The notes: generated by a model not told the origin, from the letters alone. DNA of 64,000 bases from a bacterium (GCA_031362565.1 JANLSU010000067.1:32001-96000), one strand, 5' to 3'; positions 1-64,000 are shown, counted from the stretch's first letter. Program-made: numbers and translations.

Positions 1-2
1 CG

Positions 3-2693
3 CAGGACGTCGGTACCGTGACCGGTGTCGTCGTCGATTCGACGACCGCGAAACCCTTGCCATTCGCGAATGTCATCTTGGTGGACACGCGCCTGGGTGC
101 CAACGCGAAGATGGACGGCACTTTCGAAATCCGCAGCGTGCCGCCCGGCGAGTACCGGGCCCGCGGCACGTATTTGGGATACGAAGCGAGTTTTCGACCG
201 GTCACCGTGACGGCCGGCGGTACCGGCACCTTGCGCTTTACGCTCCGCAAGAAGATCGCCGCCGGTACCACCAAAAAAATCGTCGTGCTCGACACCCGCC
301 CGCTCGTCAACGTGTCGGAGATCTCGACCGTGCGCTCGACGCGCGCCGAAGACATCAGCAAGATGACTGTCGATGAAGTCTCCGGCGTGGTGCAGCGCCA
401 GGTGGGCGTCTCAGGCACCGACGAAGAGATCCATGTGCGCGGCGGGCGCAGCGACGAAACGCTGTTCCGCATCGAAAGTGTCGCGATGAAAAACGTCGTG
501 ACCGGTGCGCCGGTGGGCGGCCAGCTCTCCGCCAAGGCAGTCCAAGAAATCCAAGTCATTACGGGTGGCTACCAGGCCGAGTACGGCCAGGCGATCAGCG
601 GTGTCGTCGACGTCGAGCTACGGGAGCCGGGGCGCGAACGCAAGTCGGCGGTCGAGGTGCAAGGCGGCAGCTTCGGCACCCAGCGGCTCTTCCTGCAGAC
701 CGAAGGCCGCGAACCGTTGTCGGCGCACATCTTGCCGGCCCTCGGCGTGCACGTTCCGGGCACGTTGGGTCTCTTGCTCGGTGTCGACATGCTGTCCACG
801 GACACCTATTTGCCGAGCCAGCGCCGCACGACCAACTTCAGCGGTACGCGGCGCTCGTTGCGTTCGGGGTACGATGCGTCGCTCTTCGGCTTGCAATTCA
901 ACTACGACGATGTCCTGCGCAGCCGCCAGAAGAACAGCCTGAACGGCTATGCCAAAATGACCTGGCGCCCGACGACGCGGCATCGCGTCAACCTGACGCT
1001 CACCAAGTTCGTCGGCATCGACCACGGCTTCGGACGGTTCCGCCTCGGTGACGAAGTCTCCGACGCGTCGTCGACCAGCACGCCGTACCACTTCGAATTC
1101 CGCGACCAAATGGACCAGTACCCGACCTTCACCGAGGAAACCAACGCCCAAATCCTCAACTGGAAATATGCGATCAACGACAAGTCGTTTTCGTCGACGT
1201 CGATTTCGCACTTTTTCAACACCGTGCAGCAGTCGGTCCAGGGCAAGCTGTGGTCGGAATACGACGAGTGGCGTCCGCCGGGCCGCGACCAGTTCTTCAT
1301 CGCCGACGACAACGGCGACTATCCGTTCTTCCAGGACCTGTTCGTGGACCGCTGGAGTGGGAGCGGCAACTTCACGCGCCGCTGGCACGGCCACCACGAA
1401 TTCAAGGCCGGCATCGAGGCCAGCTACTACACGCTGCAAATGATCGAAATACGCAATCCGCGCGAAGGCCCCGCGGGGCTTGGCAGCGTGCGCGACCTGT
1501 ACCGGGTGCACCCGAACGACGGGTCTTTCTACGCCCAAAATCAGTTCAAGTACGAGGGCTTCGTCGGCCACGCCGGCTTGCGCGGCGACTATCTCTTCCT
1601 CGGCAATGAAGCCGACGACGCGGTCGCCGAGCGCCGCAACGGTATGACCGAATCCGTGGCGCAGGCCTATCTGGACGACACGCGGTCGCTGTTCGGACAT
1701 CGCTACAAGATGTTCTTCAGCCCCCGGCTCGGCATCAACCACCCGATCACCGAACGCGATGAAATGCACTTCAACTTCGGGCATTTCATCCAGTGGCCGC
1801 GGCTCGTGTACTACTACGCCAAGATCGGCTCGAACTCGAGCGAGGCCTTTCCGGTGACCGGCAACCTCGACCTCGATCCGCAGCGCTCGGTGCAGTACGA
1901 AGCCGGCGTCAAACATCAGTTTGGCGACAACGACGCCATCGACGCGACGTTCTTCAACAAGGATGTCTACGACTATCCGACGGCGACACGCCCGGTCGAA
2001 GCGGCGGCGCGCCGGCTGGTGTACATCAACGACGATTTTTCGCGCACCCGTGGCTTCGAATTCCAGTACCAGCACCGCGCCAGCAGGCGCCTCTCCGGCA
2101 CCGCGTCCTACGAGTATCAGATCGCGACCGGCAAACCCGCCGATCCGAACCGCATCAAGCAAGTCGATCCCGACGCGCTGGAAACCGGCGACGTGGAGCC
2201 CGACCTGACCGAACAGTTCATGCCGTGGAACCGGCCGCACCGCGTGCAGCTGACGGTGGACTGGCGGTTTGGCAAAGGCGATCGCACCAAACTGGGCGGC
2301 TGGACGCTGCCGGACAACTGGGGCGTGAACGCCTACTACACGCTGCAATCGGGCCGCCCGTATACGCCCACCAACTCGCGTGGCGAGCGCACCGGGAAGA
2401 ACAACTCCAAGAATGCGCCGTTCGAGAATGATCTGGATCTCAAGCTCAACAAACGCTGGGACCTGCGTGCCGGGTCGTGTTTCGGCGTCAATTTCGAAGC
2501 GCGCAACGTCTTCAACACCCAGGTTCTGCGCGTTGTCGATCCGAGCACTGGGGCGAAACCGCAAGTCGGCGTCGGCCGCTACCAGACCCTGACAACCGAT
2601 ACGTCGCGCGCCACGCTTGCCCAGTCGCTGTCGAGTCCCGCCTTCTTCGCCGAAGGCCGCAACCTCCGGCTTGGGTTGGAGGTGACGTTCTGA
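3..2693 (+). CDS. TonB-dependent receptor with N-terminal carboxypeptidase-regulatory-like domain (5'-partial)
   Basis: Frame is open to the window edge (QDVGTVTGVVVD..PLPFANV). Plug motifs HVRGGRSDE and TGGYQAEYGQAISGVV, barrel motifs SPRLG and GNLDLDP, C-terminal ...LGLEVTF (terminal Phe). Confidence 0.92.
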   Translation, partial: QDVGTVTGVVVDSTTAKPLPFANVILVDTRLGANAKMDGTFEIRSVPPGEYRARGTYLGYEASFRPVTVTAGGTGTLRFTLRKKIAAGTTKKIVVLDTRPLVNVSEISTVRSTRAEDISKMTVDEVSGVVQRQVGVSGTDEEIHVRGGRSDETLFRIESVAMKNVVTGAPVGGQLSAKAVQEIQVITGGYQAEYGQAISGVVDVELREPGRERKSAVEVQGGSFGTQRLFLQTEGREPLSAHILPALGVHVPGTLGLLLGVDMLSTDTYLPSQRRTTNFSGTRRSLRSGYDASLFGLQFNYDDVLRSRQKNSLNGYAKMTWRPTTRHRVNLTLTKFVGIDHGFGRFRLGDEVSDASSTSTPYHFEFRDQMDQYPTFTEETNAQILNWKYAINDKSFSSTSISHFFNTVQQSVQGKLWSEYDEWRPPGRDQFFIADDNGDYPFFQDLFVDRWSGSGNFTRRWHGHHEFKAGIEASYYTLQMIEIRNPREGPAGLGSVRDLYRVHPNDGSFYAQNQFKYEGFVGHAGLRGDYLFLGNEADDAVAERRNGMTESVAQAYLDDTRSLFGHRYKMFFSPRLGINHPITERDEMHFNFGHFIQWPRLVYYYAKIGSNSSEAFPVTGNLDLDPQRSVQYEAGVKHQFGDNDAIDATFFNKDVYDYPTATRPVEAAARRLVYINDDFSRTRGFEFQYQHRASRRLSGTASYEYQIATGKPADPNRIKQVDPDALETGDVEPDLTEQFMPWNRPHRVQLTVDWRFGKGDRTKLGGWTLPDNWGVNAYYTLQSGRPYTPTNSRGERTGKNNSKNAPFENDLDLKLNKRWDLRAGSCFGVNFEARNVFNTQVLRVVDPSTGAKPQVGVGRYQTLTTDTSRATLAQSLSSPAFFAEGRNLRLGLEVTF

Positions 2694-3715
2694 TGCGCCG
2701 GCTGCCTACCGCTTCGCAACACCTCGTGACCGGTCTCACGGCGCTCGCGGTTGCCGTGACCGGCGCGCCGCCCGTCGCACGCGCCGCCGAAGAACTGGGC
2801 GCGCAGCGCGTCGCGACCTCCATGTTGACCTTCTTGAAGATCGGCGTCGGCGCCCGCGCCGAGGCCATGGGCGAGGCCTTCGTCCCGGTGGCCGACGACG
2901 CGACGACGTTGCATTGGAATCCCGCCGGCATCGGCGACCTGCCCAAACGCAGCGTGCATGTCTCGCACACGAGCTGGCCGGCCGACATCGACTATCAGAA
3001 CGCTATTTACGTGCAGCCGACGGGGTTTTTCGGCGGCGGTTTCGGCGTCCAGATCGCCTCACTGCGGACGACCCTCGACTACACGACCGAAGCCGAACCG
3101 TTGCCGCACGGCCGCACGTTCGGCTATTCCGACCTGTTGCTCGGCGTCGGCTACTCGCGGCCGTTCACCGACCACTTCACCCTCGGCGTCGGGCTCAAGT
3201 ACCTGCGTGAGGATCTGGGTTCGGACGTCGGCGGCAGCGTGCTCGGCTCCTGGAGCCTCGACATGGGCACGGTTTTCCGCCTGCCGTACCGCGGGTTTCG
3301 CGTCTCGATGGCGTGGACCAACTTCGGGCCGGATTTCAAACCACCGGGTGGGTTCCACAGTGTGGGTCCCAATCCGAGCGACGTGCGCTACGCCAGCTTT
3401 TCGCCGGCCAGCATCTTTGCCTTCGGAGTGGCGCTCGAACCGATCAAGCGCCAGCACTATCGCTTGCTGACCGCATTGCAGTTCGACCATCCGGCCGACG
3501 GCGCGGAACTCGTCAAGGGTGGCGCCGAACTGTGGCTCGACGAAATGCTGGCGCTGCGCGCCGGTTGGAACCCGCGCTCGGCGGAAATGGATTTCTCGAC
3601 CGGAATCGGTCTGCGCGGCGCCTTCTCGGGGCGCGTCGTGCACTTCGACTACGCCTACACCGACGGCAATGCACTCGGGCGCGTCGACCGCTTCAGTGTG
3701 GAGGTCGAGTTCTGA
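2693..3715 (+). CDS. PorV/PorQ-family (FadL-like) outer-membrane beta-barrel protein
   Basis: Signal peptide, then FLKIGVGARAEAMGEAFVPVADDATTLHWNPAG, characteristic of PorV/UPF0164. Ends ...FSVEVEF. The ATG overlaps the upstream TGA (TGATG). Confidence 0.85.
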   Translation: MRRLPTASQHLVTGLTALAVAVTGAPPVARAAEELGAQRVATSMLTFLKIGVGARAEAMGEAFVPVADDATTLHWNPAGIGDLPKRSVHVSHTSWPADIDYQNAIYVQPTGFFGGGFGVQIASLRTTLDYTTEAEPLPHGRTFGYSDLLLGVGYSRPFTDHFTLGVGLKYLREDLGSDVGGSVLGSWSLDMGTVFRLPYRGFRVSMAWTNFGPDFKPPGGFHSVGPNPSDVRYASFSPASIFAFGVALEPIKRQHYRLLTALQFDHPADGAELVKGGAELWLDEMLALRAGWNPRSAEMDFSTGIGLRGAFSGRVVHFDYAYTDGNALGRVDRFSVEVEF

Positions 3716-4746
3716 TGCACCCGACCGCCACCACACGACGGGCGAGCGTGTCACGGCTCGCCTGGTTGATGCTCGCCGCGTCGATGTTCGCTGGACTCGA
3801 CACCGGTTGCGGGCGGCGGCTCGATTTGCCTGCCGAGCCCGATTCGGACGGCGGCCCGGCCGGGGAAGTCGCGTACGTCAAGAAATACGCCTGGGATGGC
3901 TTGCCGGCGCTCACCGATCTCGTGTTGACGCGCGGCCAGCAGCTCTACGGCATCGACCCCGCGGGCCGGGTGCGCAGTTGGTTTTCCGATACCGCGACAC
4001 CGCGCGAGAACACGTCTCGCAACCTGCCGGTCGATGTGATCGTCGGACCGGACACGCTGCGGGCGCCGGTGCAACTCTGTGAGGGCCTGGGCAGCACGCT
4101 GTGGGTGGCGTACTCGCAGCCGCAGCCGACGCTCTTGCAGTGGAATGTCGGTGTCGTGCCGCCGGTGCCAGTCGATTCCGGCGTCGTTCGCGACAACGCG
4201 TTCCGGCGTTTCGGCGGCATCGCCGCCGACCCTGACAGCAATCTCGTCTATGTGGCCGACGACAGCGTCAGCACGATCACCAAGTACGCGCCGTCGCGGA
4301 CCGGCGGCCATCGCATCGCCACCCTCGCCTCGCAGGGCAATGGGGATCATTTCGTTCAGCAGCCGCACGGCTTGTTCGCGTTCGGGGATTCACTCCTGGT
4401 CGCCGACACCGGTAAGAACTGGCTGCAGGTTCTCTCGTCGCGGGTGCCGTTCAGCGGCCGCGGCCAAGTGGAGGGTCCGATCGACCAACCGTTGCAGATG
4501 ATCTTGCCCCGCGACGTGTGGATCGACCCAACCGGCTTTTTCTACGTTACCGACACCGGCAACGCGCGGGTCTTGAAACTCACCCGCCAGGGCCGCATCA
4601 AGGAAATCGTCACCGAGCTGGACGTCGCTGCGGCCGACCATCCGAACACTCTCGCGGCCACCGACACCAAGGTTTGGGTCGTGGATCCCGACCTCGGCCG
4701 GTTGACCATCTATCAATTGAATACGGCGAGTGAGGGATTGCCATGA
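3715..4746 (+). CDS. NHL-repeat / beta-propeller lipoprotein
   Basis: Signal ending ...DTGC. Repeats VYVADD, LLVADTGKN, FYVTDTGNARVLK, VWVVDP. TGATG coupling. Confidence 0.75.
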   Translation: MHPTATTRRASVSRLAWLMLAASMFAGLDTGCGRRLDLPAEPDSDGGPAGEVAYVKKYAWDGLPALTDLVLTRGQQLYGIDPAGRVRSWFSDTATPRENTSRNLPVDVIVGPDTLRAPVQLCEGLGSTLWVAYSQPQPTLLQWNVGVVPPVPVDSGVVRDNAFRRFGGIAADPDSNLVYVADDSVSTITKYAPSRTGGHRIATLASQGNGDHFVQQPHGLFAFGDSLLVADTGKNWLQVLSSRVPFSGRGQVEGPIDQPLQMILPRDVWIDPTGFFYVTDTGNARVLKLTRQGRIKEIVTELDVAAADHPNTLAATDTKVWVVDPDLGRLTIYQLNTASEGLP

Positions 4747-6782
4747 TGCCACAGACACGCCGCCGTACAATCGCCGGTTTCGTGTTGCTCGGCGTGCTTG
4801 CCGCCGGCCTGGGGATCGCGCGCGCCGGCTCGCCGGAACGCGACGCCGTGAACAGCACGCCGGCGCCCCGCGGGCTGACTTTCTCGAGTAGCCGCAGCGG
4901 CGACGAGATCGAAGCGACAAGCTGCCTTTTGACCCCCACCGATATCGGCAATGTCCGCCTGATCGTGTCGAGCAACGGCACGTTCGGCACCGGGTTCTCG
5001 GCGCGCGAAACACCGTCGATGGAATGGCCGGCGCGCTCCGGCATCGACCATATGGTCCGCGCCTCGGTCTGGGTGGGGGCTATCAGTGCTGCCTCGGGTG
5101 ACACCCTGGTCTCGATCGGCGGACGCGACGCGCAATACACCGATGCCATCTGCCAGTACTCCGAGTGGACGCCGGTCGGCGGCCGGCCGCTGGAATTCTC
5201 GCGCCTGCGCACCAGCCCGTTCTACCGCAGCGGCACGGTGTCCGACGAAAATCTGCACACCGTGTACGTCGACTCGGTCCTCGTGCCGCGCACCGGCGCC
5301 GAACCACCGCACCGGCCGCTCGGGGTGCGTCTCGTGCAAGAAACCTATACCTGGGGATTCGACCCGCTCGATGACTTCGTGATCGTCGAGATGAACGTCG
5401 TCAACACCGGCGACATCTCGCTGCAGGACGTGTGGGTCGGCATCTACAGCGAAATGGTCACCAACGACCGGCAAGCCAACTGGCCGACCTGGCCGCCCGG
5501 CGGGCGTTGGTTCGATTTCCAAGCCCCGGAGTGGGATGCCGAACGCCACATGCTGGTCAACCACAACACCGAACGCCGGTTTGTGGGACCGGACGTGCGT
5601 GCGGCCATTAAAGTGCTGGGAACGGGCGGCCAAGGCCCCTTTGGGCGCGGCCCGGACAGCCTGTCGACGAAGCGCATTTCGCTCACGGCCTGGAACTGGA
5701 GCCCGACCCAGTTCCAAACCTGGACCGACGATTCGCTCTACATCCGCATGAGCACCGGGCGGATCACGAATCTCGACTCGACGATTTTCTCACCCGGCAT
5801 CGAAGCGAATCCGGTGACGATCGTTGCGGCGGGGCCGTTCGCGCAACTCGCGCCTGGCGACACCGCGCAAGTCGTGTTCGCGTTCATTGCCGCCGAGAGC
5901 CAAGTGGATCTCGAGAAGAACGCCTTCTGGGCCCAAAAGGCGTACAACGACAAGTACGCGCTGCCGTCGCCCCCCAGTCCGCCGCGGGTGCGCGTCTATC
6001 CGCGCCACAACGAAATCGTGCTGCGCTGGAACAGCGCGCCGGAATCCGAACCCGATCCCGCGACGCATTTGCCCGACTTCCAGGGCTATCGCGTCTACTT
6101 GAGCGAGAGCCCGCTGGCGGCGCGTTTCCAACTCGCACAGCAATACGACGTGCGCGATGGCGTCGGCTTCGATACCGGTTTGGAGGGCGTGCGCTTGCCG
6201 CAGCCCTATATCGATGGCCCCGACACGTTGCAGTACGAGGCACACTTGACCGGCATCCCCGACGGCCAGAAACGCTACGTTGCCGTCACCTCCTACGACT
6301 TCCAACAGGGCGTACCGCCGACTCTCGAGAGCGGTGTCTTGACGAATTCGGTGTACTGCATCACCGGCCCCGATGCCGCCCAAGCGCGCGGCCACAAGGT
6401 GAGCGTGTTCCCGAACCCCTATCGCGGTGAGTCGACCTTCGATGGCCGCGACGCACAGGGTGGCCTGAACCCACGCAAGCGCATCATTTGGTTCGTGAAC
6501 CTGCCGTCGCGGTCGCGGGTGCGCATTTACACCCTGGCCGGCGACCTGGTGCGCAGCTACGAGTACGACGCCGCGACGTATCGCGGCACCGAAGCGCAGG
6601 GGATCAAACCCGACAATGCGGACCTGTCGCAGGGCCGCTATCTGGTGACGGGCGGCACCATGGTCGCCTTCGATTTGCTGAGCGAGAACCGGCAGGAAAT
6701 CGCCACCGGCCTCTATCTGTTCTCGGTCAAGGACCTGGCGAACGGCGACACGCAGCAGGGCAAGTTCTTGGTGCTCAAGTAA
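4743..6782 (+). CDS. Secreted protein with FN3-like domain and C-terminal T9SS-CTD/FlgD-like sorting domain
   Basis: Signal peptide. PSPPSPP linker followed by LRWN...DFQGYRVY...YVAVTSYD (FN3-like). Terminal KVSVFPNPY...VRIYTLAGDLVR...ATGLYLFSV...GKFLVLK. Confidence 0.75.
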   Translation: MMPQTRRRTIAGFVLLGVLAAGLGIARAGSPERDAVNSTPAPRGLTFSSSRSGDEIEATSCLLTPTDIGNVRLIVSSNGTFGTGFSARETPSMEWPARSGIDHMVRASVWVGAISAASGDTLVSIGGRDAQYTDAICQYSEWTPVGGRPLEFSRLRTSPFYRSGTVSDENLHTVYVDSVLVPRTGAEPPHRPLGVRLVQETYTWGFDPLDDFVIVEMNVVNTGDISLQDVWVGIYSEMVTNDRQANWPTWPPGGRWFDFQAPEWDAERHMLVNHNTERRFVGPDVRAAIKVLGTGGQGPFGRGPDSLSTKRISLTAWNWSPTQFQTWTDDSLYIRMSTGRITNLDSTIFSPGIEANPVTIVAAGPFAQLAPGDTAQVVFAFIAAESQVDLEKNAFWAQKAYNDKYALPSPPSPPRVRVYPRHNEIVLRWNSAPESEPDPATHLPDFQGYRVYLSESPLAARFQLAQQYDVRDGVGFDTGLEGVRLPQPYIDGPDTLQYEAHLTGIPDGQKRYVAVTSYDFQQGVPPTLESGVLTNSVYCITGPDAAQARGHKVSVFPNPYRGESTFDGRDAQGGLNPRKRIIWFVNLPSRSRVRIYTLAGDLVRSYEYDAATYRGTEAQGIKPDNADLSQGRYLVTGGTMVAFDLLSENRQEIATGLYLFSVKDLANGDTQQGKFLVLK

Positions 6783-6798
6783 CGGGAGCGGTGGTGCC

Positions 6799-8334
6799 TT
6801 GAGATTCGAGCCCGCACAGACAGGGTTGCGCCGGGGGCGGCGCGGCACGGCTGGGATCGTGCTTTTGGCCGCGCTCGCGCTGGGGCTGGGCCTCGGTGGG
6901 CCGGGCTGCGACGACTCGATCGACCCCAAGCCCCCCAAGGAAGGCAACCTGGCGCCGGAGACCTTCCTGCTGGTGCGCGCCGACAGCGTCGCGCCGCAGT
7001 TCTACAAGCTGCCTTTGGCCTGGCTCGGCACGGATCCCGATGGCCGGGTGGCGGGCTACAACGTTCGCTGGCAGTGCATCACCACCCCGGGCATCGCCTG
7101 CACCGATCCGGTAGCATGGTCGTTCACCACCGCGACCCGTGACACGTTTATCCTCCAGGTTCCGCAAGGCACCGCCACCTATCGCTTCGACGTCGCAGCC
7201 GTAGATGACCAGGGGGCGGTGGACCCGACCCCGGCGAGCCAGGTGGTCCGCTTCTACAACGCCGCGCCGATCGTGGCTTTTCAGGCTTCGACGACCCCGA
7301 CGCGCACTCTGCCGGCGGTGACCTTTTACGCCGAGGCGGTCGACCCGGACAGCTCCGTCAACCCCAACGACCACGACGCGGCGGGAACGATTGCGCAATA
7401 TCGCGCCTGGCTGGATGGCAACGAAGCCGCGGCCCATACGGTCCCCGCGGCAGCGGCCGGCGTGACGTTCCGTCCCGAAGACTTCCAGGGGCGTTTCGGC
7501 TCCCGCACCGTGTTTCTGCAGGCGATCGATACGGGCGGCCAATCCAGTGCGCTGGTGCAACATACCTGGCAAGTCGACGCGCCGCCCGATCAGGGGATTC
7601 TGCTCGTCGACGACTGCCGCATGGGCGGGTTCCTGGAACAGTTTTCGGATACTTCGTACCGCAATGCACTGACCGCCGCCGCCCCGGGGCGTCCGGTCGT
7701 GATGGACGTCGAGACCATTCCGCGCCTCGGCAGGGCAGATCTGGAAGCGACACTCTCGCTCTTCCATGACGTCGTCTGGTATACTGACGCCGATACGGTT
7801 TCATCCGGGGCGCTCGAATTGGCGCGGGCCGGCCTCGATTCGCTGCTCAGCCGCGGCGGCAACATGCTGCTGGTGACTGGGTTGGCGTTCGGCACGCGTG
7901 GTGCGTTCGGGCCCGAAGAGCCGCGTTTCCGCGACTTCTTCGGAATCGAAACGGTGTTCCGGGGTCCGAACGGCAGCACGAATTTCGCGCTCAGCCTGAC
8001 GGACTCGGTACGCGCGGTGGTAACGCCCGCCGTCACGCAGTTCCACTTCTTGAGCTTCGGATTGGGCGCAGTGATGGAGTGCTTCGGGTCGCGGCAGGAC
8101 GCCGCAACGCAGAGCCTCTATTTCTACCCGGAATCGACGTTCGTGCGCGGCGACAGTCTGACCCCCTTCGCGAACACCGTCCAGTTCGACGTCGGGGTGC
8201 AGCACCAGGTAGCCGCGGGCGGGCACGCCATTTACGTGAGTTTCCCGCTCGGGGTGCCGATCAACGACGTCCTGTCGGGCGAGAACGAGGCCGAGATCCG
8301 CGAGCTCCTGCGACTTGCGGGCATGGTCCCTTGA
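6799..8334 (+). CDS. Hypothetical lipoprotein (Ig-like N-terminal domains, alpha/beta C-terminal domain)
   Basis: TTG start after GGAG. Hydrophobic signal ending GPGC. APETFL...GTDPDGRVAGY...AVDDQGAVDPTPA Ig-like pattern. Confidence 0.7.
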   Translation: MRFEPAQTGLRRGRRGTAGIVLLAALALGLGLGGPGCDDSIDPKPPKEGNLAPETFLLVRADSVAPQFYKLPLAWLGTDPDGRVAGYNVRWQCITTPGIACTDPVAWSFTTATRDTFILQVPQGTATYRFDVAAVDDQGAVDPTPASQVVRFYNAAPIVAFQASTTPTRTLPAVTFYAEAVDPDSSVNPNDHDAAGTIAQYRAWLDGNEAAAHTVPAAAAGVTFRPEDFQGRFGSRTVFLQAIDTGGQSSALVQHTWQVDAPPDQGILLVDDCRMGGFLEQFSDTSYRNALTAAAPGRPVVMDVETIPRLGRADLEATLSLFHDVVWYTDADTVSSGALELARAGLDSLLSRGGNMLLVTGLAFGTRGAFGPEEPRFRDFFGIETVFRGPNGSTNFALSLTDSVRAVVTPAVTQFHFLSFGLGAVMECFGSRQDAATQSLYFYPESTFVRGDSLTPFANTVQFDVGVQHQVAAGGHAIYVSFPLGVPINDVLSGENEAEIRELLRLAGMVP

Positions 8335-8368
8335 AGTAAGCGAGTCGCAGGCAAAGGGGAGGAACCGC

Positions 8369-10324
8369 ATGAAACACATCCTTCGGGTGCTCACGGTGGG
8401 CGCCGTGGCGGTGCTGCTCGCCGCGAGCGGTGCGTTCGCCGTCGACACCACCATCTACAACATTCAGCAGGGCCTGCATTTGTCCGGTGCGGCGGTGAAG
8501 GTCCTCAGTGTCGTGATCATCGGCGTCGACGTGAAGCCGAGCACCTACGGCGTGTACGTCCAGGAATCGGCCGGCGGTGCCTATAGCGGTATCCTGGCGT
8601 TCACAGGTTCGACTTTCCCCGCCTACACGCCGGTATCGACGGTGCCCGCGGTCGGTGACGTGGTCAATGTCGAGGGGCTCTACACGGAATTCAGCGGCCT
8701 GTCGGAAATCACCAACCCGATCTTCACCAAGATCGGCACGACGACACCGCTCGTGCCGATCAAGCTGCCCGTCGACTCCCTGAAGGTCAACTATGCGGGC
8801 TCCGAACGCTGGGAAGGCGTGCTCGTTCGCGTCGACTCGGTGATCGTGACGTCGCTCAACGGTTTCAACGACTGGCGCGTGCATCACTTCAACGGTCCCG
8901 TCGGCGGGCGCGTCGATAGCCTCGTGGGCTACGAAAAGATGGTCGCCGGCCAGGTGGTGCCGGAAGTCACCGACAAGCTGAACGTCATCGGCGTCGCTGA
9001 TTTCGCCTTCTCGGAACGCCGCATCGCGCCGCGCAACGACGCCGACATCACGTTTCTGACCCCGGGTCCGGCGGCGGTGCCCAATCTGTGTTACTCGCCG
9101 GCCGAGAACAAGATCAAGGTGCGGTTCAACGTCGCGTTGAACGCCGCCGACGCCCAGACGACGTCGAAGTATTCTCTGAGTACGCTGACGCCGATCACGA
9201 GCGCCGTGTATACGGCCGCCACCAAGACCGTCCTCTTGACGACGTCCGTGAACCTGACGCCGTCGGTCACGCCGCACGTCCTGTCGATCAGCGGCATCCG
9301 CAACAGCCAGGGCACGCCGATGGTGGATCCGCAGACCATCAGCTTCATCGGCGGTGTCACGACGATCCCGTTCATTCAGACGCCGAAGTCGGCGACCAAT
9401 GACACGAGCCAAGTCGTCGGCCAGCAGGTGTCGTTCCGCGGCGTGTGCACCGGCAGTACCGCGGGTGCGTCGCCGGACTTCCCGCCGAGCATCGGTGGGT
9501 TCTACGTCCAGCAGCGTAGCGCGACCCAGTACGGCGGCATCTTCGTCTTCGGTTCACCGTCGACGCCGGCGCGCGGCGACAGCGTGTTCCTGAGCGGGCT
9601 CCTGACCGAGTTCGGGGTGGGCCCCGAGACCGAGTTGACGAGTGTCGACGAAATGACCGTACTCGGTACGAACCGTCCGCCGATCACGCCACCCGTGGTG
9701 TCGCTCTTGAACGCCAGCGGGACGATCCCGGCCGAGGCCGAGAAGTACGAAAGCATGCTCATCAAGATTCCGAACGTCTTCTCGCTCTTCACGGGCACGT
9801 TTGGTACGTCGTTCAATGTCTCGCAGAGCTTGGCCGGCGGCGATACGCTCCGAGTCGACAACTTCGCGATCAACGACCAGCAGTACGCGCCCTGGCGCGG
9901 CGATAACGACGACATCACCGGGATCATCCGGTTCAGCGGCACGGCGCCTTTCCGCCGCATCGAACCGCGCAACTGGTCCGAGCCACCGACGGGTGACATC
10001 CACGTCATCGCCAAGGCCAACGTGTCCGACGCGCCGCCCACGGCACTCCGGACGCAGTTGCTGCAGAATCAGCCGAATCCGTTCAACCCGACGACCCGTA
10101 TCGACTTCACCCTGGAACACGCGGGTCCGGTCGCGGTGCGGATCTACGATCCGGCCGGCAAGCTCGTCCGCACGGTCTTCTCGGGCGAGAAGGCGGCCGG
10201 CTTGAATAGCGTCACGTGGGACGGCAAGAACGACCAGGGCCGCCAGGCCGGTACGGGCCTCTACCTGTATCGCCTCGCCGCCGGTACCTTCACTCAAACC
10301 CGCAAGATGATGCTGCTCAAGTAA
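8369..10324 (+). CDS. Secreted tandem OB-fold protein with C-terminal FlgD-Ig/T9SS-type domain
   Basis: SD GGGGAGG and signal peptide (AFA). Two copies of TIxxIQ...[VF]YVQ...Y[SG]GI..F...GD.V...G..TEF...E.[WY]E..L.[RK]. C-terminus LLQNQPNPFNPTTRI...IYDPAGKLVR...WDGKNDQG...GLYLYRL...RKMMLLK. Confidence 0.8.
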   Translation: MKHILRVLTVGAVAVLLAASGAFAVDTTIYNIQQGLHLSGAAVKVLSVVIIGVDVKPSTYGVYVQESAGGAYSGILAFTGSTFPAYTPVSTVPAVGDVVNVEGLYTEFSGLSEITNPIFTKIGTTTPLVPIKLPVDSLKVNYAGSERWEGVLVRVDSVIVTSLNGFNDWRVHHFNGPVGGRVDSLVGYEKMVAGQVVPEVTDKLNVIGVADFAFSERRIAPRNDADITFLTPGPAAVPNLCYSPAENKIKVRFNVALNAADAQTTSKYSLSTLTPITSAVYTAATKTVLLTTSVNLTPSVTPHVLSISGIRNSQGTPMVDPQTISFIGGVTTIPFIQTPKSATNDTSQVVGQQVSFRGVCTGSTAGASPDFPPSIGGFYVQQRSATQYGGIFVFGSPSTPARGDSVFLSGLLTEFGVGPETELTSVDEMTVLGTNRPPITPPVVSLLNASGTIPAEAEKYESMLIKIPNVFSLFTGTFGTSFNVSQSLAGGDTLRVDNFAINDQQYAPWRGDNDDITGIIRFSGTAPFRRIEPRNWSEPPTGDIHVIAKANVSDAPPTALRTQLLQNQPNPFNPTTRIDFTLEHAGPVAVRIYDPAGKLVRTVFSGEKAAGLNSVTWDGKNDQGRQAGTGLYLYRLAAGTFTQTRKMMLLK

Positions 10325-10352
10325 GCTGCATCGTTTCAAGGGTCTAGATCCC

Positions 10353-10389
10353 AAACGGGGTGCTCCTGCGGGGGCACCCCGTTTTACTT
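10353..10389 (+). terminator. Rho-independent terminator
   Basis: 14-bp hairpin AAACGGGGTGCTCC-tgcg-GGGGCACCCCGTTT running into a T-rich tail. Confidence 0.85.
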
Positions 10390-10416
10390 GGTGGGAGCGC
10401 CACCCTGGCGGGCCCC

Positions 10417-10446
10417 TTGACGCCTGGCCCCCCAGACCGGTAGCCT
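10417..10446 (+). promoter_or_regulatory. sigma70-like promoter of rplM operon
   Basis: TTGACG-N18-TAGCCT upstream of rplM. Confidence 0.55.
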
Positions 10447-10489
10447 CCCGGTTTGCTGTGTCCGATTCAGAGGTTCCGGAGGATTTGCA

Positions 10490-10921
10490 ATGAAAACCCA
10501 CGTGGTCAAGGCGCGCGAAGTCGAGCGCGGTTGGGTGCACATCGACGCCGATGGCCAGATTGTGGGCCGGCTCGCGACGCGGGTCGCCGATATTCTGCGC
10601 GGCAAGGACAAGCCCACCTTCACGCCGTACATGGACTTGGGCGATTTCGTGATCATCACGAATTGCGCCAAGGTCAAGTTCACCGGCCGCAAGCTCGAGC
10701 AACGTACTTTTTCGAAGTACTCGGGCTGGCAGGGTGGTCTGAAGACCAAGTCGCTGCAAGAGATATTCGATAAGCATCCCGATGAAGTCGTGTACGAGGC
10801 GGTGCGCGGCATGCTGCCGCACACCAAGCTCGGCCGCGCCCAAATCAAGAAGTTACGCGTCTTCGCCGGTGCGGAGCATCCGCACAGCGCGCAGCAGCCT
10901 GAAGTTCGCAAGCTCGGCTGA
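10490..10921 (+). CDS. rplM: 50S ribosomal protein L13
   Basis: WVHIDADGQIVGRLAT...LRGKDKPTFTP...VRGMLP; SD GGAGG. Confidence 0.98.
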   Translation: MKTHVVKAREVERGWVHIDADGQIVGRLATRVADILRGKDKPTFTPYMDLGDFVIITNCAKVKFTGRKLEQRTFSKYSGWQGGLKTKSLQEIFDKHPDEVVYEAVRGMLPHTKLGRAQIKKLRVFAGAEHPHSAQQPEVRKLG

Positions 10922-10984
10922 TGCCAGAGCCGTGGTGCGCCGCGGCGCGCCGTTCGTACACTCTCGACGATGGAAGGAGGGACA

Positions 10985-11380
10985 ATGCCTCAACCGACCG
11001 CGTATATGGCGACCGGCCGCCGCAAGGAAGCCGTCGCCCGGGTTCGTATCGTCAGCGGAACCGGCCAGCAAATTGTCAATGGCCGCCCGATGCGTGAATA
11101 TTTGTGCCGTGACTCGCTCGTCCGTCAGGTGCTGCAACCGCTCGAGGTTGCGCAAACCGCCATGACGTTCGATCTCCGTGCCAACGTGCACGGTGGCGGT
11201 GTGACGGGCCAGGCCGGCGCGATTCGCCTCGGACTGGCACGCGCGCTCTTGGTCTACGACGCCGAACTGCGCAAAGCCTTGCGCCGCGCCGGACTGCTCA
11301 CCCGTGATCCACGGATGAAGGAACGCAAGAAGTACGGTCTGCGTGGTGCTCGCCGCGCCTTCCAGTTCTCCAAGCGCTAA
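10985..11380 (+). CDS. rpsI: 30S ribosomal protein S9
   Basis: [12 protein letters not shown]...[12 protein letters not shown]...[28 protein letters not shown]. Confidence 0.98.
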
Positions 11381-60574: not shown

Positions 60575-60742
60575 CTGCCACTCGCGGCTGAGTCCGTTGA
60601 TCGCGCACGTCGCTCGCCCGACGCGGCAGGGCACACGGAGAGTTCGATCGCCGACCCCCACCGGTGACGGACCGTGGAAGGGTTGCATCGTCTCTCCATT
60701 TGCGTTTGGAGCGACGCGCGGGCTCATAACGCCATTTTGCGA
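60575..60742 (+). promoter_or_regulatory. Structured 5' leader (candidate cis-regulatory RNA)
   Basis: Nested pairings TGAGTCCG/CGGGCTCA, CGTCGCTC/GAGCGACG, GGAGAG/CTCTCC, CGACCC/GGGTTG. Confidence 0.45.
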
Positions 60743-60776
60743 CACACGACCGGATCTCGAAGGGGGAGTGAGGACT

Positions 60777-63700
60777 TTGAAGTCCAGAGTTTGTGGCACG
60801 TTGCGTGAACGTGTGCGCCCCCTGGCGCAGCTCTGGTTCGTGGTCGCGTCGCTCGCGGCGTCTGTGGCGTTCGCGCAACAGACGACGCCGTATGGCTCGG
60901 TCACGGGCAAGGTCGTCGACAAGGACTCGGGCGCACCGCTCAATTTCGCCAACGTTGTGATTGTCGGCACCTCGATGGGTGCGAACGCGCGTAACGGCGG
61001 TTTGTTCAACATCGCCATCGTTCCCGTCGGCACCTACAATTTGAAGGCATCGTACGTCGGCTACGATGCGCAGACCCTCGTCAACGTGCGGGTCGACGCC
61101 GGCAAGCCGCTGGTGCTCGAGTTCCGGCTCAAAAAGGGCAGCGGGACAATGCTCGATGCCGTCAAGGTCACGGGCAAAGTCAAACAGATCGACGTCAAGT
61201 CGTCCGACGTGTCGCACGTGCAGACCGACAAGGAGTTCTTGTCGTTGCCGGTGGAAAGCGTCACCGAAGCGGTGGCACTCAACACGGGTGTCGTGGTGCA
61301 AGGCGGCGAGTTGCACGTCCGCGGCGGCCGGTCGAACGAAGTCTCGGTGCGCATCGACGGGGTGCCGGTCGACGATCCGCTTTCCGGCGGCAGTGTCGAC
61401 TTGGGATTGCTCTCCGTGGCGCAGTCCGAACTCATCACCGGCGGAATGGATGCCGAATACGGCAATGCCTCGTCGGCGATCATCAACTTCACGACCAAGT
61501 CCGGCGGCCGGAACTTCGAAGGCAATTTCCGCTATACGACCGACGACTATGGGCGCGCCGACAAAACCTTCACGAACTACGACCGGCTGTCGCTCGGGAT
61601 GGGCGGGCCGACACCGTTCAACGATCTGACGTACTACGTCTCGGGTGAGGCCACGTTCCAAGACGGCGAAGTGCTGTCCGTGCGCCGCTACCCCGAACAC
61701 GAGTACCTGAACGGCTTCCTGAAGTTCAAGGAACGCGCCGACACCAATTTCCGCACCCAGGCGCGGCTCGACTGGAAGGTCAGCAAGGGCGTCAAGATGT
61801 CGGGTGAGATGACGCTCGACAAGACGTCGTCCGATCCGTACATCCACAACTACAACACGTCCGGCCAAGTCTCGCGGATCATGATCTTCCCGGAGTTTCG
61901 CCGCAACCGATTCGCACCCCAGGAACCGTGGTATGCGATTCAGTCGCAGGTCATCATGTACTCGGGGTCGTGGTATCAGAAGGCGCTGAAGGCGACCTAT
62001 GTCGATATCCGCGACGATCCGAGTTGCCAGTACTGCCTGCTGCCGGTTTCCGACAACCAGACGCAGCGCGCGGTACGCGTCGTCGATTTCCAAGGCCGCG
62101 GGTCGGAACCGACCCTGCCGCCGGCTCTCGGCGGCCGGCTGGCCGTGTACGCGTACATCGACTTCATCATCTTCGACGGCTTCCAGAATCCGATCTCGAC
62201 GTGGGTGCCCGAAGTGGGGTCGGCCGCGGCCGACACCAACAAGGCGGAGTTCAACGCCGCCGAACACGTGTGGACCAACAAGAACCTGAGCTACCAGTTC
62301 AAATGGTCGATGACCCATACCCTGTCGCCCAGGAGCTTTTACGAAGTCAAGTTGTCGCGCCTCAGTTTCGACGTGCTGAGTAGCGTCAACGACCAGACGC
62401 CTGGCGAGTACGCGACGGCGGGCAAGTTCCTGTGGGTGCCCGGCCGCGGTCCGATCACCGTCGGCAACGTCGACTTCTACACCGATCCGGAAGTGCCATT
62501 CTTCGCGACGGCTTACGATTACCAGCGCTACTCGCGCCGGAACAGCGCCACGTACTTGATGCGTTCCGACATCACGACGCAACGTTGGAAGAACCACAAG
62601 ATGAAGGGCGGCTTGCTCGTCCAGTACAACGATCTGGATAATGCGACGTTCACCGGCCCCGGACGCCAGCGCCAATTCCGGGAGTCGTACGGGTTCAGCG
62701 GCAACGTCTTCCACAATTTCAATCCGGAAGGTTCGTTTTACGTCCAGGATCAGTGGCAGTACGAGGGCATGGTCGTCAACGGCGGCGCGCGTTACGACTT
62801 CTTCTCGCCGGGATCCGGCGTCGGGGTCGAGGTCAACAGCAGCCAGATCCAGCGCGACATCGACCGCTGGAAGACGCAGTTGAGCCCGCGACTGGGGCTC
62901 TCGTTCCCGATCACCGATCGCGACAACTTCCACTTCCACTACGGCCGCTTCATCCAGTTCCCGGAGAAGAACCTCATCTTCGCGACTCAGGATGTGAACG
63001 GCGGCCTCGGGACGCTCGGCAATCCGAACTTGGATCCCGAGACGTCGATTTCGTACCAGGCCGGCATCAAACATCAGTTCTCAACCGACGTGTCCGGGCA
63101 GTTCGCGCTGTTCAACAAGGACTACTACGGCCTGGTGTCGTCGATCGAGATCACGGACGACTCCACGGGCACCCAGAACACGCGCTACATCAACAAGGCG
63201 TACGCCAGCAGCCGCGGCGTCGAGTTGCAGCTCAACAAGGACTTCAGCCGCAACTTCGCCTTCGATCTCGCCTATACGTTCTCGTTCGCGGACGGTGTGG
63301 CGTCGAACGCCGACTTCGGCGTTCAAGCCCAGGGCTTGTCGCACTTGCCGACCGGTGAGCTGCCGCTCGATTGGGACCAGCGGCACACGTTCAACGCGAC
63401 CCTGTCGATCGCCCGCGCCGGCGACTGGTCGGCCACGACGGTCTATCAGTACACGAGTGGACTGCCTTGGACGCCGTTCTTCCGGTTCGAAAAGCGGCAG
63501 GATCCGGTTCTGGAGAACTCCCGCCGGTTTCCAAAGCAGCACCTCGTCAACTTCCGCGGCGAAAAGTTCTTCAAAATCTACGGCCAGGACTTGCGGCTGT
63601 TCTTCGATGGCCGCAATTTGCTGGACGAGAAGGTGATCGCGGACTTGAGCCCGTTGGTCTATCCGGGGCTCCGCAACGCCACCGACGGCTACGTGTCGTA

Positions 63701-63842
63701 CGCCACGGAGCAAAACCGTTTTGGCGGCGCCTACTTGCTCGACAGTGACGGCGACGGCCGCGATGAGTTCTTCCCGGTCAACGACCCGCGCGTCTTCGGA
63801 CAGCGCCGCTTATTCCGTATCGGACTCGGATTCGAATTCTGA
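60777..63842 (+). CDS. TonB-dependent receptor (paralog of the first)
   Basis: TTG after SD GGGGGAG (alternative GTG 60768). Signal AFA-QQ, GSVTGKVVD...PL.FANV, LHVRGGRSNE, TGGMDAEYGNA, LSPRLG, GNPNLDPE, ...IGLGFEF. Confidence 0.92.
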   Translation: MKSRVCGTLRERVRPLAQLWFVVASLAASVAFAQQTTPYGSVTGKVVDKDSGAPLNFANVVIVGTSMGANARNGGLFNIAIVPVGTYNLKASYVGYDAQTLVNVRVDAGKPLVLEFRLKKGSGTMLDAVKVTGKVKQIDVKSSDVSHVQTDKEFLSLPVESVTEAVALNTGVVVQGGELHVRGGRSNEVSVRIDGVPVDDPLSGGSVDLGLLSVAQSELITGGMDAEYGNASSAIINFTTKSGGRNFEGNFRYTTDDYGRADKTFTNYDRLSLGMGGPTPFNDLTYYVSGEATFQDGEVLSVRRYPEHEYLNGFLKFKERADTNFRTQARLDWKVSKGVKMSGEMTLDKTSSDPYIHNYNTSGQVSRIMIFPEFRRNRFAPQEPWYAIQSQVIMYSGSWYQKALKATYVDIRDDPSCQYCLLPVSDNQTQRAVRVVDFQGRGSEPTLPPALGGRLAVYAYIDFIIFDGFQNPISTWVPEVGSAAADTNKAEFNAAEHVWTNKNLSYQFKWSMTHTLSPRSFYEVKLSRLSFDVLSSVNDQTPGEYATAGKFLWVPGRGPITVGNVDFYTDPEVPFFATAYDYQRYSRRNSATYLMRSDITTQRWKNHKMKGGLLVQYNDLDNATFTGPGRQRQFRESYGFSGNVFHNFNPEGSFYVQDQWQYEGMVVNGGARYDFFSPGSGVGVEVNSSQIQRDIDRWKTQLSPRLGLSFPITDRDNFHFHYGRFIQFPEKNLIFATQDVNGGLGTLGNPNLDPETSISYQAGIKHQFSTDVSGQFALFNKDYYGLVSSIEITDDSTGTQNTRYINKAYASSRGVELQLNKDFSRNFAFDLAYTFSFADGVASNADFGVQAQGLSHLPTGELPLDWDQRHTFNATLSIARAGDWSATTVYQYTSGLPWTPFFRFEKRQDPVLENSRRFPKQHLVNFRGEKFFKIYGQDLRLFFDGRNLLDEKVIADLSPLVYPGLRNATDGYVSYATEQNRFGGAYLLDSDGDGRDEFFPVNDPRVFGQRRLFRIGLGFEF

Positions 63843-63906
63843 GTCCAAGCCCATGTTCTCGCAGGTGGCGCACGCAGGCGGCGGGGCGCCTGGAAAGGCT
63901 GAGGCA

Positions 63907-64000
63907 ATGCGCAGAGGAATCACCAGAGCAATCACCGGACTGCTCCTGGGGTTCGCGGTCGCCGTGCTGCGGCCGGTCCCGGTTGTGGCGCGTAGCAATA
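63907..64000 (+). CDS. Start of secreted protein (3'-partial)
   Basis: GAGG then ATG. MRRGITRAITGLLLGFAVAVLRPVPVVARSN is a signal peptide open to the window end. Confidence 0.6.
   Translation, partial: MRRGITRAITGLLLGFAVAVLRPVPVVARSN

Follow-up and report, generated by a model that had tools for sequence, protein, structure and literature searches.

We analysed a 64,000-nucleotide stretch of bacterial DNA (GCA_031362565.1, JANLSU010000067.1:32001-96000, on contig C83; hereafter the window), which opens with an operon of six genes, g1 to g6. Our findings point, with about as much for it as against it, to a model where this operon encodes a TonB import machine: g4, a type IX secretion system (T9SS) cargo, would be held by its own PorV-family barrel (g2) beside the TonB-dependent transporter (g1), and fragments of DNA or RNA would probably be imported. 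The components of this model differ in strength. That the operon encodes an importer is highly probable, and genomic context lends good support to a role in import; binding of g4 by g2 is likely; a nucleic-acid substrate is somewhat favoured for clade A, the clade of this locus; and the part of g4 as a lid, a reasoned hypothesis, could go either way.

A PorV-family barrel and its predicted cargo

Seven proteins of this genome, which is rated 100% complete, score above the PorV-family cut-off, and three of the seven stand in triads with a transporter and a g4 homologue: at this locus (clade A), from window position 60597 (clade B) and on contig C86 (clade C). For 81 triads (57 of clade A, 11 of B and 13 of C), separate trees of the transporter, the barrel, g4 and its tail agree on one set of three clades, with support of 0.945-1.0, and their distances correlate at 0.82-0.90 overall and 0.74-0.83 within clade A; five other barrels of the genome, the PorU-adjacent PorV included, fall outside the triad clades. 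The tail of the g4 type is carried by five proteins of the genome, three of them in triads, against 201 with the ordinary tail seen in g6, so that g4 is the only plausible private client. The first-pass annotation suggested that the PorV paralogue may hold the tailed proteins of the operon; this stays plausible for g4, whereas g6 was ruled out as a private client of g2 by its ordinary tail. A private barrel is moderately supported.

Some observations speak against so exclusive a pairing. Congruent trees are also expected from operon co-inheritance. Among 40 loci of g4 paralogues, 24 are triads, seven lie beside g5-like lipoproteins and nine have neither, the transporter-PorV pair being absent in 16; and in six of the 10 genomes of family f6, g4 lies apart from the g5-g1-g2-g3 block, the barrel staying with g5, g1 and g3. 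Given these exceptions, the g2-g4 tie appears strong rather than absolute. The split genomes, where g2 keeps g1, g5 and g3 and g4 departs, would also suit a barrel acting as private shuttle of g4, as SprF does for SprB, or as a lipoprotein platform, as BamG does for BamH, with g4 away from the pore or serving as an assembly factor. Precedents exist (statements on published systems refer here to the covered portions of the cited texts): the FadL-family barrel BamG has BamA and a lipoprotein as binding partners (PMC12578637), and PorP/SprF are cargo-specific barrels (PMC10202324). Yet the triads of clades B and C comprise three genes and lack any g3 or g5 homologue, which leaves the transporter and g4 as the constant partners of the barrel, and the barrel and tail trees agree; we regard this alternative as quite unlikely.

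The linkage of these genes, on which the first-pass annotation let its reading depend, proved to be conserved. In 40 loci of the class, fetched from relatives where g4 matched best and hence selected by g4 similarity, the relatives not being independent, g1-g5 occur together in 27 and all six genes in 15; loci L002-L004 were left out of the counts as possible duplicates of genomes already counted. The 13 misses comprise six f6 genomes with a split operon, six loci of families f3 and f4 with only distant g4 paralogues, and one truncated contig. Gene order in f1 and f5 is as here; in f2 and f6 it is (g6)-g4-g5-g1-g2-g3. From 549 metagenome loci 80 were kept, and among the 34 of at least 12 kb (GC 0.41-0.71, two main orders) 29 contain g1, g2 and g4, and 20 contain the full six-gene set. 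The closest named relatives are two Candidatus Krumholzibacteriia metagenome-assembled genomes, with g2 identity of 64-67%, from a contig scan with a single query sequence that reached three loci, so that the named taxonomic range is thin; the present genome probably belongs to their group. The g4 family itself numbers 5,998 clusters with E values of 1e-10 or lower, its named members including Ignavibacteria, WOR-3 and Zixibacteria (sequence matches, synteny apart).

Of 151 genomes of the class, 86 carry the clade A transporter, essentially in single copy (f1 3/4, f2 61/67, f5 11/11, f6 10/10); it was not found in 58 genomes from five other families of the class. Its core-like, single-copy distribution is what one might expect of a transporter-like barrel engaged in export or envelope upkeep instead of uptake, and there is a precedent of a TonB-dependent transporter needed for secretion (PMC6434023): Oar is reportedly required for the secretion of PopC. 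This alternative is scarcely credible here: paralogous triads reside within catabolic loci, SprA already supplies a translocon, and the clade is missing from those 58 genomes.

As to the secretion route itself, the genome contains SprA (TIGR04189, 448.9 against a cut-off of 200) and PorU (NF033707, 534.8 against 420), with 149 TIGR04183 tail matches among 150 scored candidates; C38:43628-50284 and the genome as a whole accordingly offer SprA, two PorU-like genes and some 150 type A tails. GldM and GldN were not found in the genome, in searches run without a positive control and with GldK and GldL outside them. Of the sprA and porK-N genes that the first-pass annotation had in view, sprA is therefore accounted for, with PorU besides, and the motor genes are not, which counts further against the proposed machine as regards the powering of its T9SS. 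The T9SS possibly works without a canonical motor in this genome, and T9SS genes beyond Bacteroidota are acknowledged in the covered literature. Genes for TonB, ExbB and ExbD lie on contig C2. The SusD models PF07980 and PF14322 matched nothing in the whole genome while detecting their Bacteroides thetaiotaomicron positive control, which extends the earlier statement that SusD is lacking.

Proteins and layout of the operon

The features of the operon are collected in table 1. As initially described, six genes share one strand, with overlaps and a terminator, according to open reading frame (ORF) calls on the stretch. The first four are coupled (TGATG at g1/g2 and g2/g3, ATGA at g3/g4); gaps of 16 bases at g4/g5 and 34 bases, with a strong ribosome-binding site, at g5/g6 follow. 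A strong terminator closes the operon: the segment 10335-10400 folds at -32.9 kcal/mol (z -3.3, equalled by 1 of 200 shuffles), with a hairpin at about 10353-10385 followed by a U run. A consensus terminator scan recovers the same hairpin, although its five sites lie below the shuffled mean of 8.5, which makes that scan weak on its own. A sigma-70 promoter scan of positions 1-11000 returned no site; the 5' flank of the operon lies beyond the window. Since ordinary genes lie upstream and rplM-rpsI-rpsB downstream (from translations), the operon is self-contained.

Table 1. Features of the operon in window coordinates
Feature	Position	Strand	Description	Basis
g1	3..2693	+	TonB-dependent transporter: CarboxypepD_reg N-domain, plug, barrel	Pfam PF13715/PF13620, PF07715, PF00593
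g2	2693..3715	+	Outer-membrane barrel of the PorV/PorQ family; paralogue particular to the operon, predicted to anchor g4	NF033709
g3	3715..4746	+	Predicted lipoprotein, NHL repeats	PF01436
g4	4743..6782	+	Secreted protein, unnamed family	AlphaFold2 model
g4 beta-supersandwich (predicted)	~4908-5951	+		AlphaFold2 and fold match
g4 FN3-like domain	~5964-6371	+		AlphaFold2
g4 variant T9SS C-terminal domain	~6390-6779	+		HHalign to g6 tail
g5	6799..8334	+	Predicted lipoprotein, Ig-Ig-GATase/ThuA-like	AlphaFold2 model, Foldseek, VIA
g6	8369..10324	+	Secreted protein: two OB-fold pairs, Ig domain, type A/FlgD-like tail	TIGR04183, ExeM/NucH N-terminus
g6 OB-fold pairs	~8441-9049 and ~9353-9997	+		ExeM/NucH N-terminus, EEP-protein profile match
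Intrinsic terminator-like hairpin and U tail	10353..10386	+	Between operon end and rplM-rpsI	Fold z and consensus scan

The start codon of g1 lies at C83:31907, 94 bases 5' of the window, giving a protein of 928 aa with a signal-peptide-like N-terminus. It is a TonB-dependent transporter (plug at cut-off, barrel at 70 bits, CarboxypepD_reg N-domain; profile matches to Cir, PirA and PhuR), but the label SusC-like first given to it has to be withdrawn: the window-encoded residues score 25.7 bits on the SusC model TIGR04056, against a cut-off of 368.25, which rules out a SusC/RagA-type transporter. The description of g2 as PorV-like, on the other hand, holds, with 147.5 bits on NF033709 (cut-off 90), a profile match to the PorV structure 6h3i_F (E 4e-15) and a clade of its own in the tree. 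It differs from PorV and PorQ proper in staying under both equivalog cut-offs (NF033710, 45.1 against 250; NF033711, 61.3 against 220); the PorU-adjacent barrel on contig C85 has a better PorV score (114.5) than g2 and a separate branch in the tree. Five related metagenome loci (L158, L163, L165, L167 and L169) have a second PorV-like ORF of 282 aa, a weak match, upstream of the cassette.

Of the two lipoproteins, g3 carries NHL repeats (E 3e-11), and a lipobox-like motif recurs in its family (21 of 27 homologue matches), in keeping with the earlier 'beta-propeller lipoprotein'; the propeller is probable from family membership. For g5 the only sequence family is fn3, at E 0.045, and the ESM Atlas returns unnamed clusters only, DUF4960 being the closest named family (0.90). 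Its AlphaFold2 model (predicted local distance difference test, pLDDT, 84.3) has the arrangement Ig-Ig-GATase-like, and all 28 homologues have a Cys close to the N-terminus; 'Ig-like lipoprotein', the earlier description, was sound as far as it went and overlooked the predicted C-terminal GATase-like domain. An amidotransferase was ruled out, as this domain has no Cys or His conserved in at least 60% of 29 rows. Foldseek aligned g5 with 8aa2_G of the levan utilisome over 511 columns (E 6e-8), with a query TM-score of 0.28 that is low, yet the highest of the list; VIA gave Z scores of 15.5 to 3rht and 11.3 to 8aa2_G. We take chain G to be Bt1761, judged by numbering to residue 438, and the layout of this levan binding protein, as described in the portion covered, fits the g5 model. 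SusD structures were absent from the Foldseek and VIA lists of g5, which by itself is no exclusion of a SusD fold; with NHL repeats in g3 and an Ig-Ig-GATase-like model for g5, neither lipoprotein looks SusD-like.

No Pfam or NCBIfam family matches g4; among PDB sequences, neither its profile nor that of g5 has a significant match. Its AlphaFold2 model (pLDDT 89.5, from 68 sequences) has as its largest domain a predicted beta-supersandwich, overlooked when g4 was first described as FN3 plus C-terminal domain; the FN3-like domain and a variant tail remain from that description. The supersandwich aligns with 9ju0 (Z 19.1, root-mean-square deviation 3.3, 261 aligned) and, with comparable scores, with the N-terminal domains of GH15, GH94 and GH116 enzymes (Z up to 19). 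The model has no helical catalytic barrel such as its fold matches possess, which rules out, as far as the prediction goes, g4 as a glycoside hydrolase. The fold searches were dominated by the supersandwich. That tail is best read, from its sequence relatives, as a variant T9SS tail: HHalign pairs it with the g6 tail (96%, E 3e-9), and TIGR04183 gives no match for this protein and weak ones in 19 of 68 homologues (best E 6e-4). The commonest NCBIfam match of the family is the PorZ model, weak and in 42 of 68 homologues, where it probably falls in the tail.

In g6, Big_5 and FlgD_ig/TIGR04183 (33.7 against a cut-off of 23) were matched, as was, twice and weakly, the start of the ExeM/NucH model (E 4.5e-12); there is also a profile match to the N-terminal part of the EEP-domain structures 9sf8 and 9sf9 (E 5e-9); no catalytic domain was found in it, and its original assignment as OB-fold plus FlgD-type tail is upheld. 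A g6 homologue at L167:12127-15057 has an N-terminal cytochrome c-like domain, and C18:17328-19409 (L087:7329-9407) encodes an LTD-OB protein with a T9SS-type tail and no catalytic domain. The six proteins, compared with Pfam and NCBIfam, match no glycoside hydrolase, polysaccharide lyase or carbohydrate esterase family, as the first reading of the sequence had it, and no nuclease catalytic domain; g4 or g5 may still have an activity that goes unrecognised.

Elsewhere in the genome, the clade B triad (window 60597-64000 onward; C83:92597-99545, L077) consists of a transporter, a 946-aa g4 paralogue and a PorV-family barrel, with a GWxTD protein and ExbB. The clade C triad (C86:21044-32250, L076) lies among genes for a LacI-family regulator, a CBM9-like protein and a PF10091 hydrolase, a SusD-less polysaccharide utilisation locus (PUL) conserved in 13 related loci. 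An orphan transporter near the triad transporters (C110:29027-32080) and an orphan g4 paralogue (C2:25534-29058) may be a split fourth unit. Tandem g5-like lipoproteins occur at C8:363-8148 (L090) and C43:12904-17889 (L089); on C8 they are followed by a protein with a g4-type tail and, about 1.1 kb on, by the best deoxynucleoside kinase match of the genome, with no transporter or PorV seen there. PorV-family barrels with long C-terminal extensions, each right behind a giant protein (~3,000 aa) with a tail-like end, lie at C63:1754-12690 and C123:75704-91519.

What the clade A importer may take up

Neighbouring genes were scanned for 28 class loci (106 of 124 neighbours, most of the 18 omitted being repeats of the ribosomal-protein block) and for 40 metagenome loci (81 of 91 clustered neighbours; three ribosomal-block genes and seven short ORFs omitted). 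Eight of 11 f2 loci adjoin a gene for deoxynucleoside kinase, adenosine deaminase or nucleoside phosphorylase. Split f6 loci have a deoxynucleoside kinase in five of six cases, accompanied by an adenosine deaminase in all three scanned, and a staphylococcal-nuclease domain adjoins one of four intact f6 loci; in one f5 locus an HNH gene lies two ORFs upstream. The metagenome loci add salvage genes (L095, L108), EEP-family genes (L119, L147, L148, L159) and other phosphoesterase or PLD genes (L098, L106, L143, L171). As a control, 89 neighbours of 23 clade B and C loci, two related sets, included no salvage or nuclease-family gene. Clade B loci adjoin oligopeptide ABC ATPases (6/10), which often precede the triads and suggest peptide uptake, and ExbB (9/10). 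A PF10091 glycoside hydrolase is encoded at all 13 clade C loci, usually alongside genes for LacI and CBM9; PF10091 is presumably the GH144 beta-1,2-glucanase family. An AP_endonuc_2 TIM-barrel gene 3' of the cassette in f5 loci was rejected as endonuclease IV, the NCBIfam family being unmatched in the two tested, and was excluded from the nucleotide counts.

By its ExeM/NucH and EEP matches, g6 has OB pairs that resemble modules of extracellular DNases. Among g6 homologues, weak DUF5689 matches number 6 of 19 in one set and 7 of 28 in another, the larger set including one PLD fusion outside a full cassette. On contig C50 (C50:26257-29568; L088:6261-9569) an LTD-OB-PLD-PLD protein with a T9SS-type tail, which has two HKD motifs and matches NucT weakly, is a candidate nuclease acting in trans; its OB likeness to g6 appears as an HMM match (E 5e-13), HHalign of the g6 alignment with it giving the tail only.

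Against nucleic acid stand several findings. No nuclease or salvage gene adjoins the operon here or at three other f1 loci; the salvage neighbours in f2 and f6 may go back to one ancestral event; and the EEP and PLD families also contain non-nucleases. This g6 has no DUF5689 match, most homologue scores for that family are below cut-off, and g6 is missing from the fetched stretch in all 11 f2 loci. The OB pairs have a net negative charge (-6 and -7 in this g6, -4 to -29 among homologues), which does not suit a simple DNA-binding surface, and g4 and g5 resemble carbohydrate-related proteins in fold. One may picture the same chassis with a glycan, peptide or other polymer as substrate, its OB pairs being generic Ca2+-stabilised binding or spacer modules: the acidic pairs and the missing nucleotide gene would fit, as would the resemblance of g4 to N-terminal domains of glycoside hydrolases and phosphorylases and of g5 to the levan surface glycan-binding protein (SGBP). 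However, a single glycoside-hydrolase-like neighbour (GHL15, L046) appears among the 106 class and 81 metagenome genes, where clade C has its enzyme at 13 of 13 loci, and the supersandwich family is common to all three clades and hence no substrate marker. A different substrate is unlikely, while being the foremost of the alternatives.

Nucleic acid might also be taken up for natural transformation and not as food, as with the TonB-type barrel and DUF5689 protein of Riemerella (PMC8459023). The near single-copy, core-like presence of the clade A transporter, the position of the cassette next to rplM-rpsI here and in several f5 loci, an operon devoid of nuclease and a ComEC in the genome all agree with this. 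Salvage and nuclease-family neighbours, by contrast, fit degradation, and ComEC, present also in 10 of 14 control genomes, discriminates little; transformation seems improbable. Under the preferred model of nucleic-acid import, g4 and g6 would exit via SprA, g6 by the general PorV/PorU route of ordinary tails, and g4 would retain its variant tail on g2, like PorZ on PorQ. The g2-g4 pair would dock at the transporter, with the g4 supersandwich above the pore in the place that SusD has in Bacteroides and with g5 and g3 on the rim, akin to the accessory proteins of utilisomes. The OB pairs of g6 would collect extracellular nucleic acid, a nuclease encoded elsewhere (possibly the C50 protein) would cut it, and the fragments would enter by TonB energy, for salvage.

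Known systems and meaning

The operon resembles SusC/SusD utilisomes such as that for levan (Bt1760-63) in having a TonB-dependent transporter with surface partners and, in g5, a layout of two Ig domains plus a globular one with its fold match to 8aa2 chain G. It departs from them in the failed SusC model, a genome without SusD, a locus without recognised hydrolase and, as constant partner, a T9SS cargo that has a barrel to itself. Closer in substrate are ddbABCDEF, the DNA-utilisation locus of B. thetaiotaomicron, where DdbD is the DUF5689 partner of the transporter (bioRxiv 10.1101/2025.03.18.642099), and Riemerella RA0C_RS04915/04920, whose TonB-type barrel and DUF5689 protein act in DNA uptake and transformation (PMC8459023). 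Shared features are a SusD-less TonB-type transporter, an OB-type partner (with DUF5689 weakly matched in some g6 homologues), a link to nucleic acid that is predicted for this operon, and six genes; peculiar to the present operon, relative to ddb, are the T9SS tail on the OB protein and the lack of a nuclease, and the covered ddb text presents no counterpart of g2, g3, g4 or g5.

Dedicated PorV-family barrels are known from PorZ-PorQ, PorU-PorV and PorP/SprF with type B cargo, one barrel per cargo with the tail retained (PMC10202324), and PorZ is the model to which the g4 family shows its weak match; the known pairs function in secretion, attachment or gliding, whereas the present one goes with a TonB-dependent transporter. 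BamG-BamH (PMC12578637) likewise shows a FadL-family barrel packed on a larger barrel and bearing surface proteins, yet with BamA as partner, lipoproteins as clients and assembly instead of uptake as function. The nearest parallel is tonB-hypA-hypB in the alginate PUL of Rhodothermus marinus, listed in the legend of Fig. 2 of PMC9530828 as a TonB receptor, a T9SS type A sorting-domain protein and a PorV/PorQ family protein: a matching triad, by annotation only and with alginate as cargo, in a text whose covered portion has PorV once, PorQ once and SusD never. The atypical PUL chu_1276-1280 of Cytophaga hutchinsonii (PMC12016534) shares a SusD-less transporter-like locus and SGBP-like proteins, and differs in serving cellulose, in including an endoglucanase and in leaving PorV unmentioned (0 occurrences in the covered text). 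Full-text literature searches, a scope that supplements and most subscription papers lie outside, turned up no account of the transporter-cargo-PorV unit, the annotated R. marinus triad being its sole trace, which agrees with the initial impression that no functional description is known. The operon is thus apparently a conserved and undescribed variant of the utilisome design, with known parts in a new combination.

Overall, we suggest, tentatively and with the doubts somewhat the heavier, a third outer-membrane uptake design made of a transporter, a variant-tail cargo and a private PorV, a T9SS-built counterpart of SusCD in SusD-less lineages of the Fibrobacterota-Chlorobiota-Bacteroidota (FCB) group. 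One chassis would have given rise to nucleic-acid, peptide and glucan importers in one genome, each barrel reading the tail of its own cargo and clamping that cargo as lid. Bacteroidia use SusCD to capture polymers, and a module joining T9SS and TonB import would, if true, explain how SusD-less relatives such as this genome feed on large molecules. It would also give a role to the unnamed g4 family, with its thousands of clusters, as well as to the additional PorV paralogues in these genomes. The annotated triad in the cultured R. marinus is a possible test bed for the design and, if clade A does import nucleic acid, these operons would constitute a widespread recycling route for extracellular DNA or RNA.

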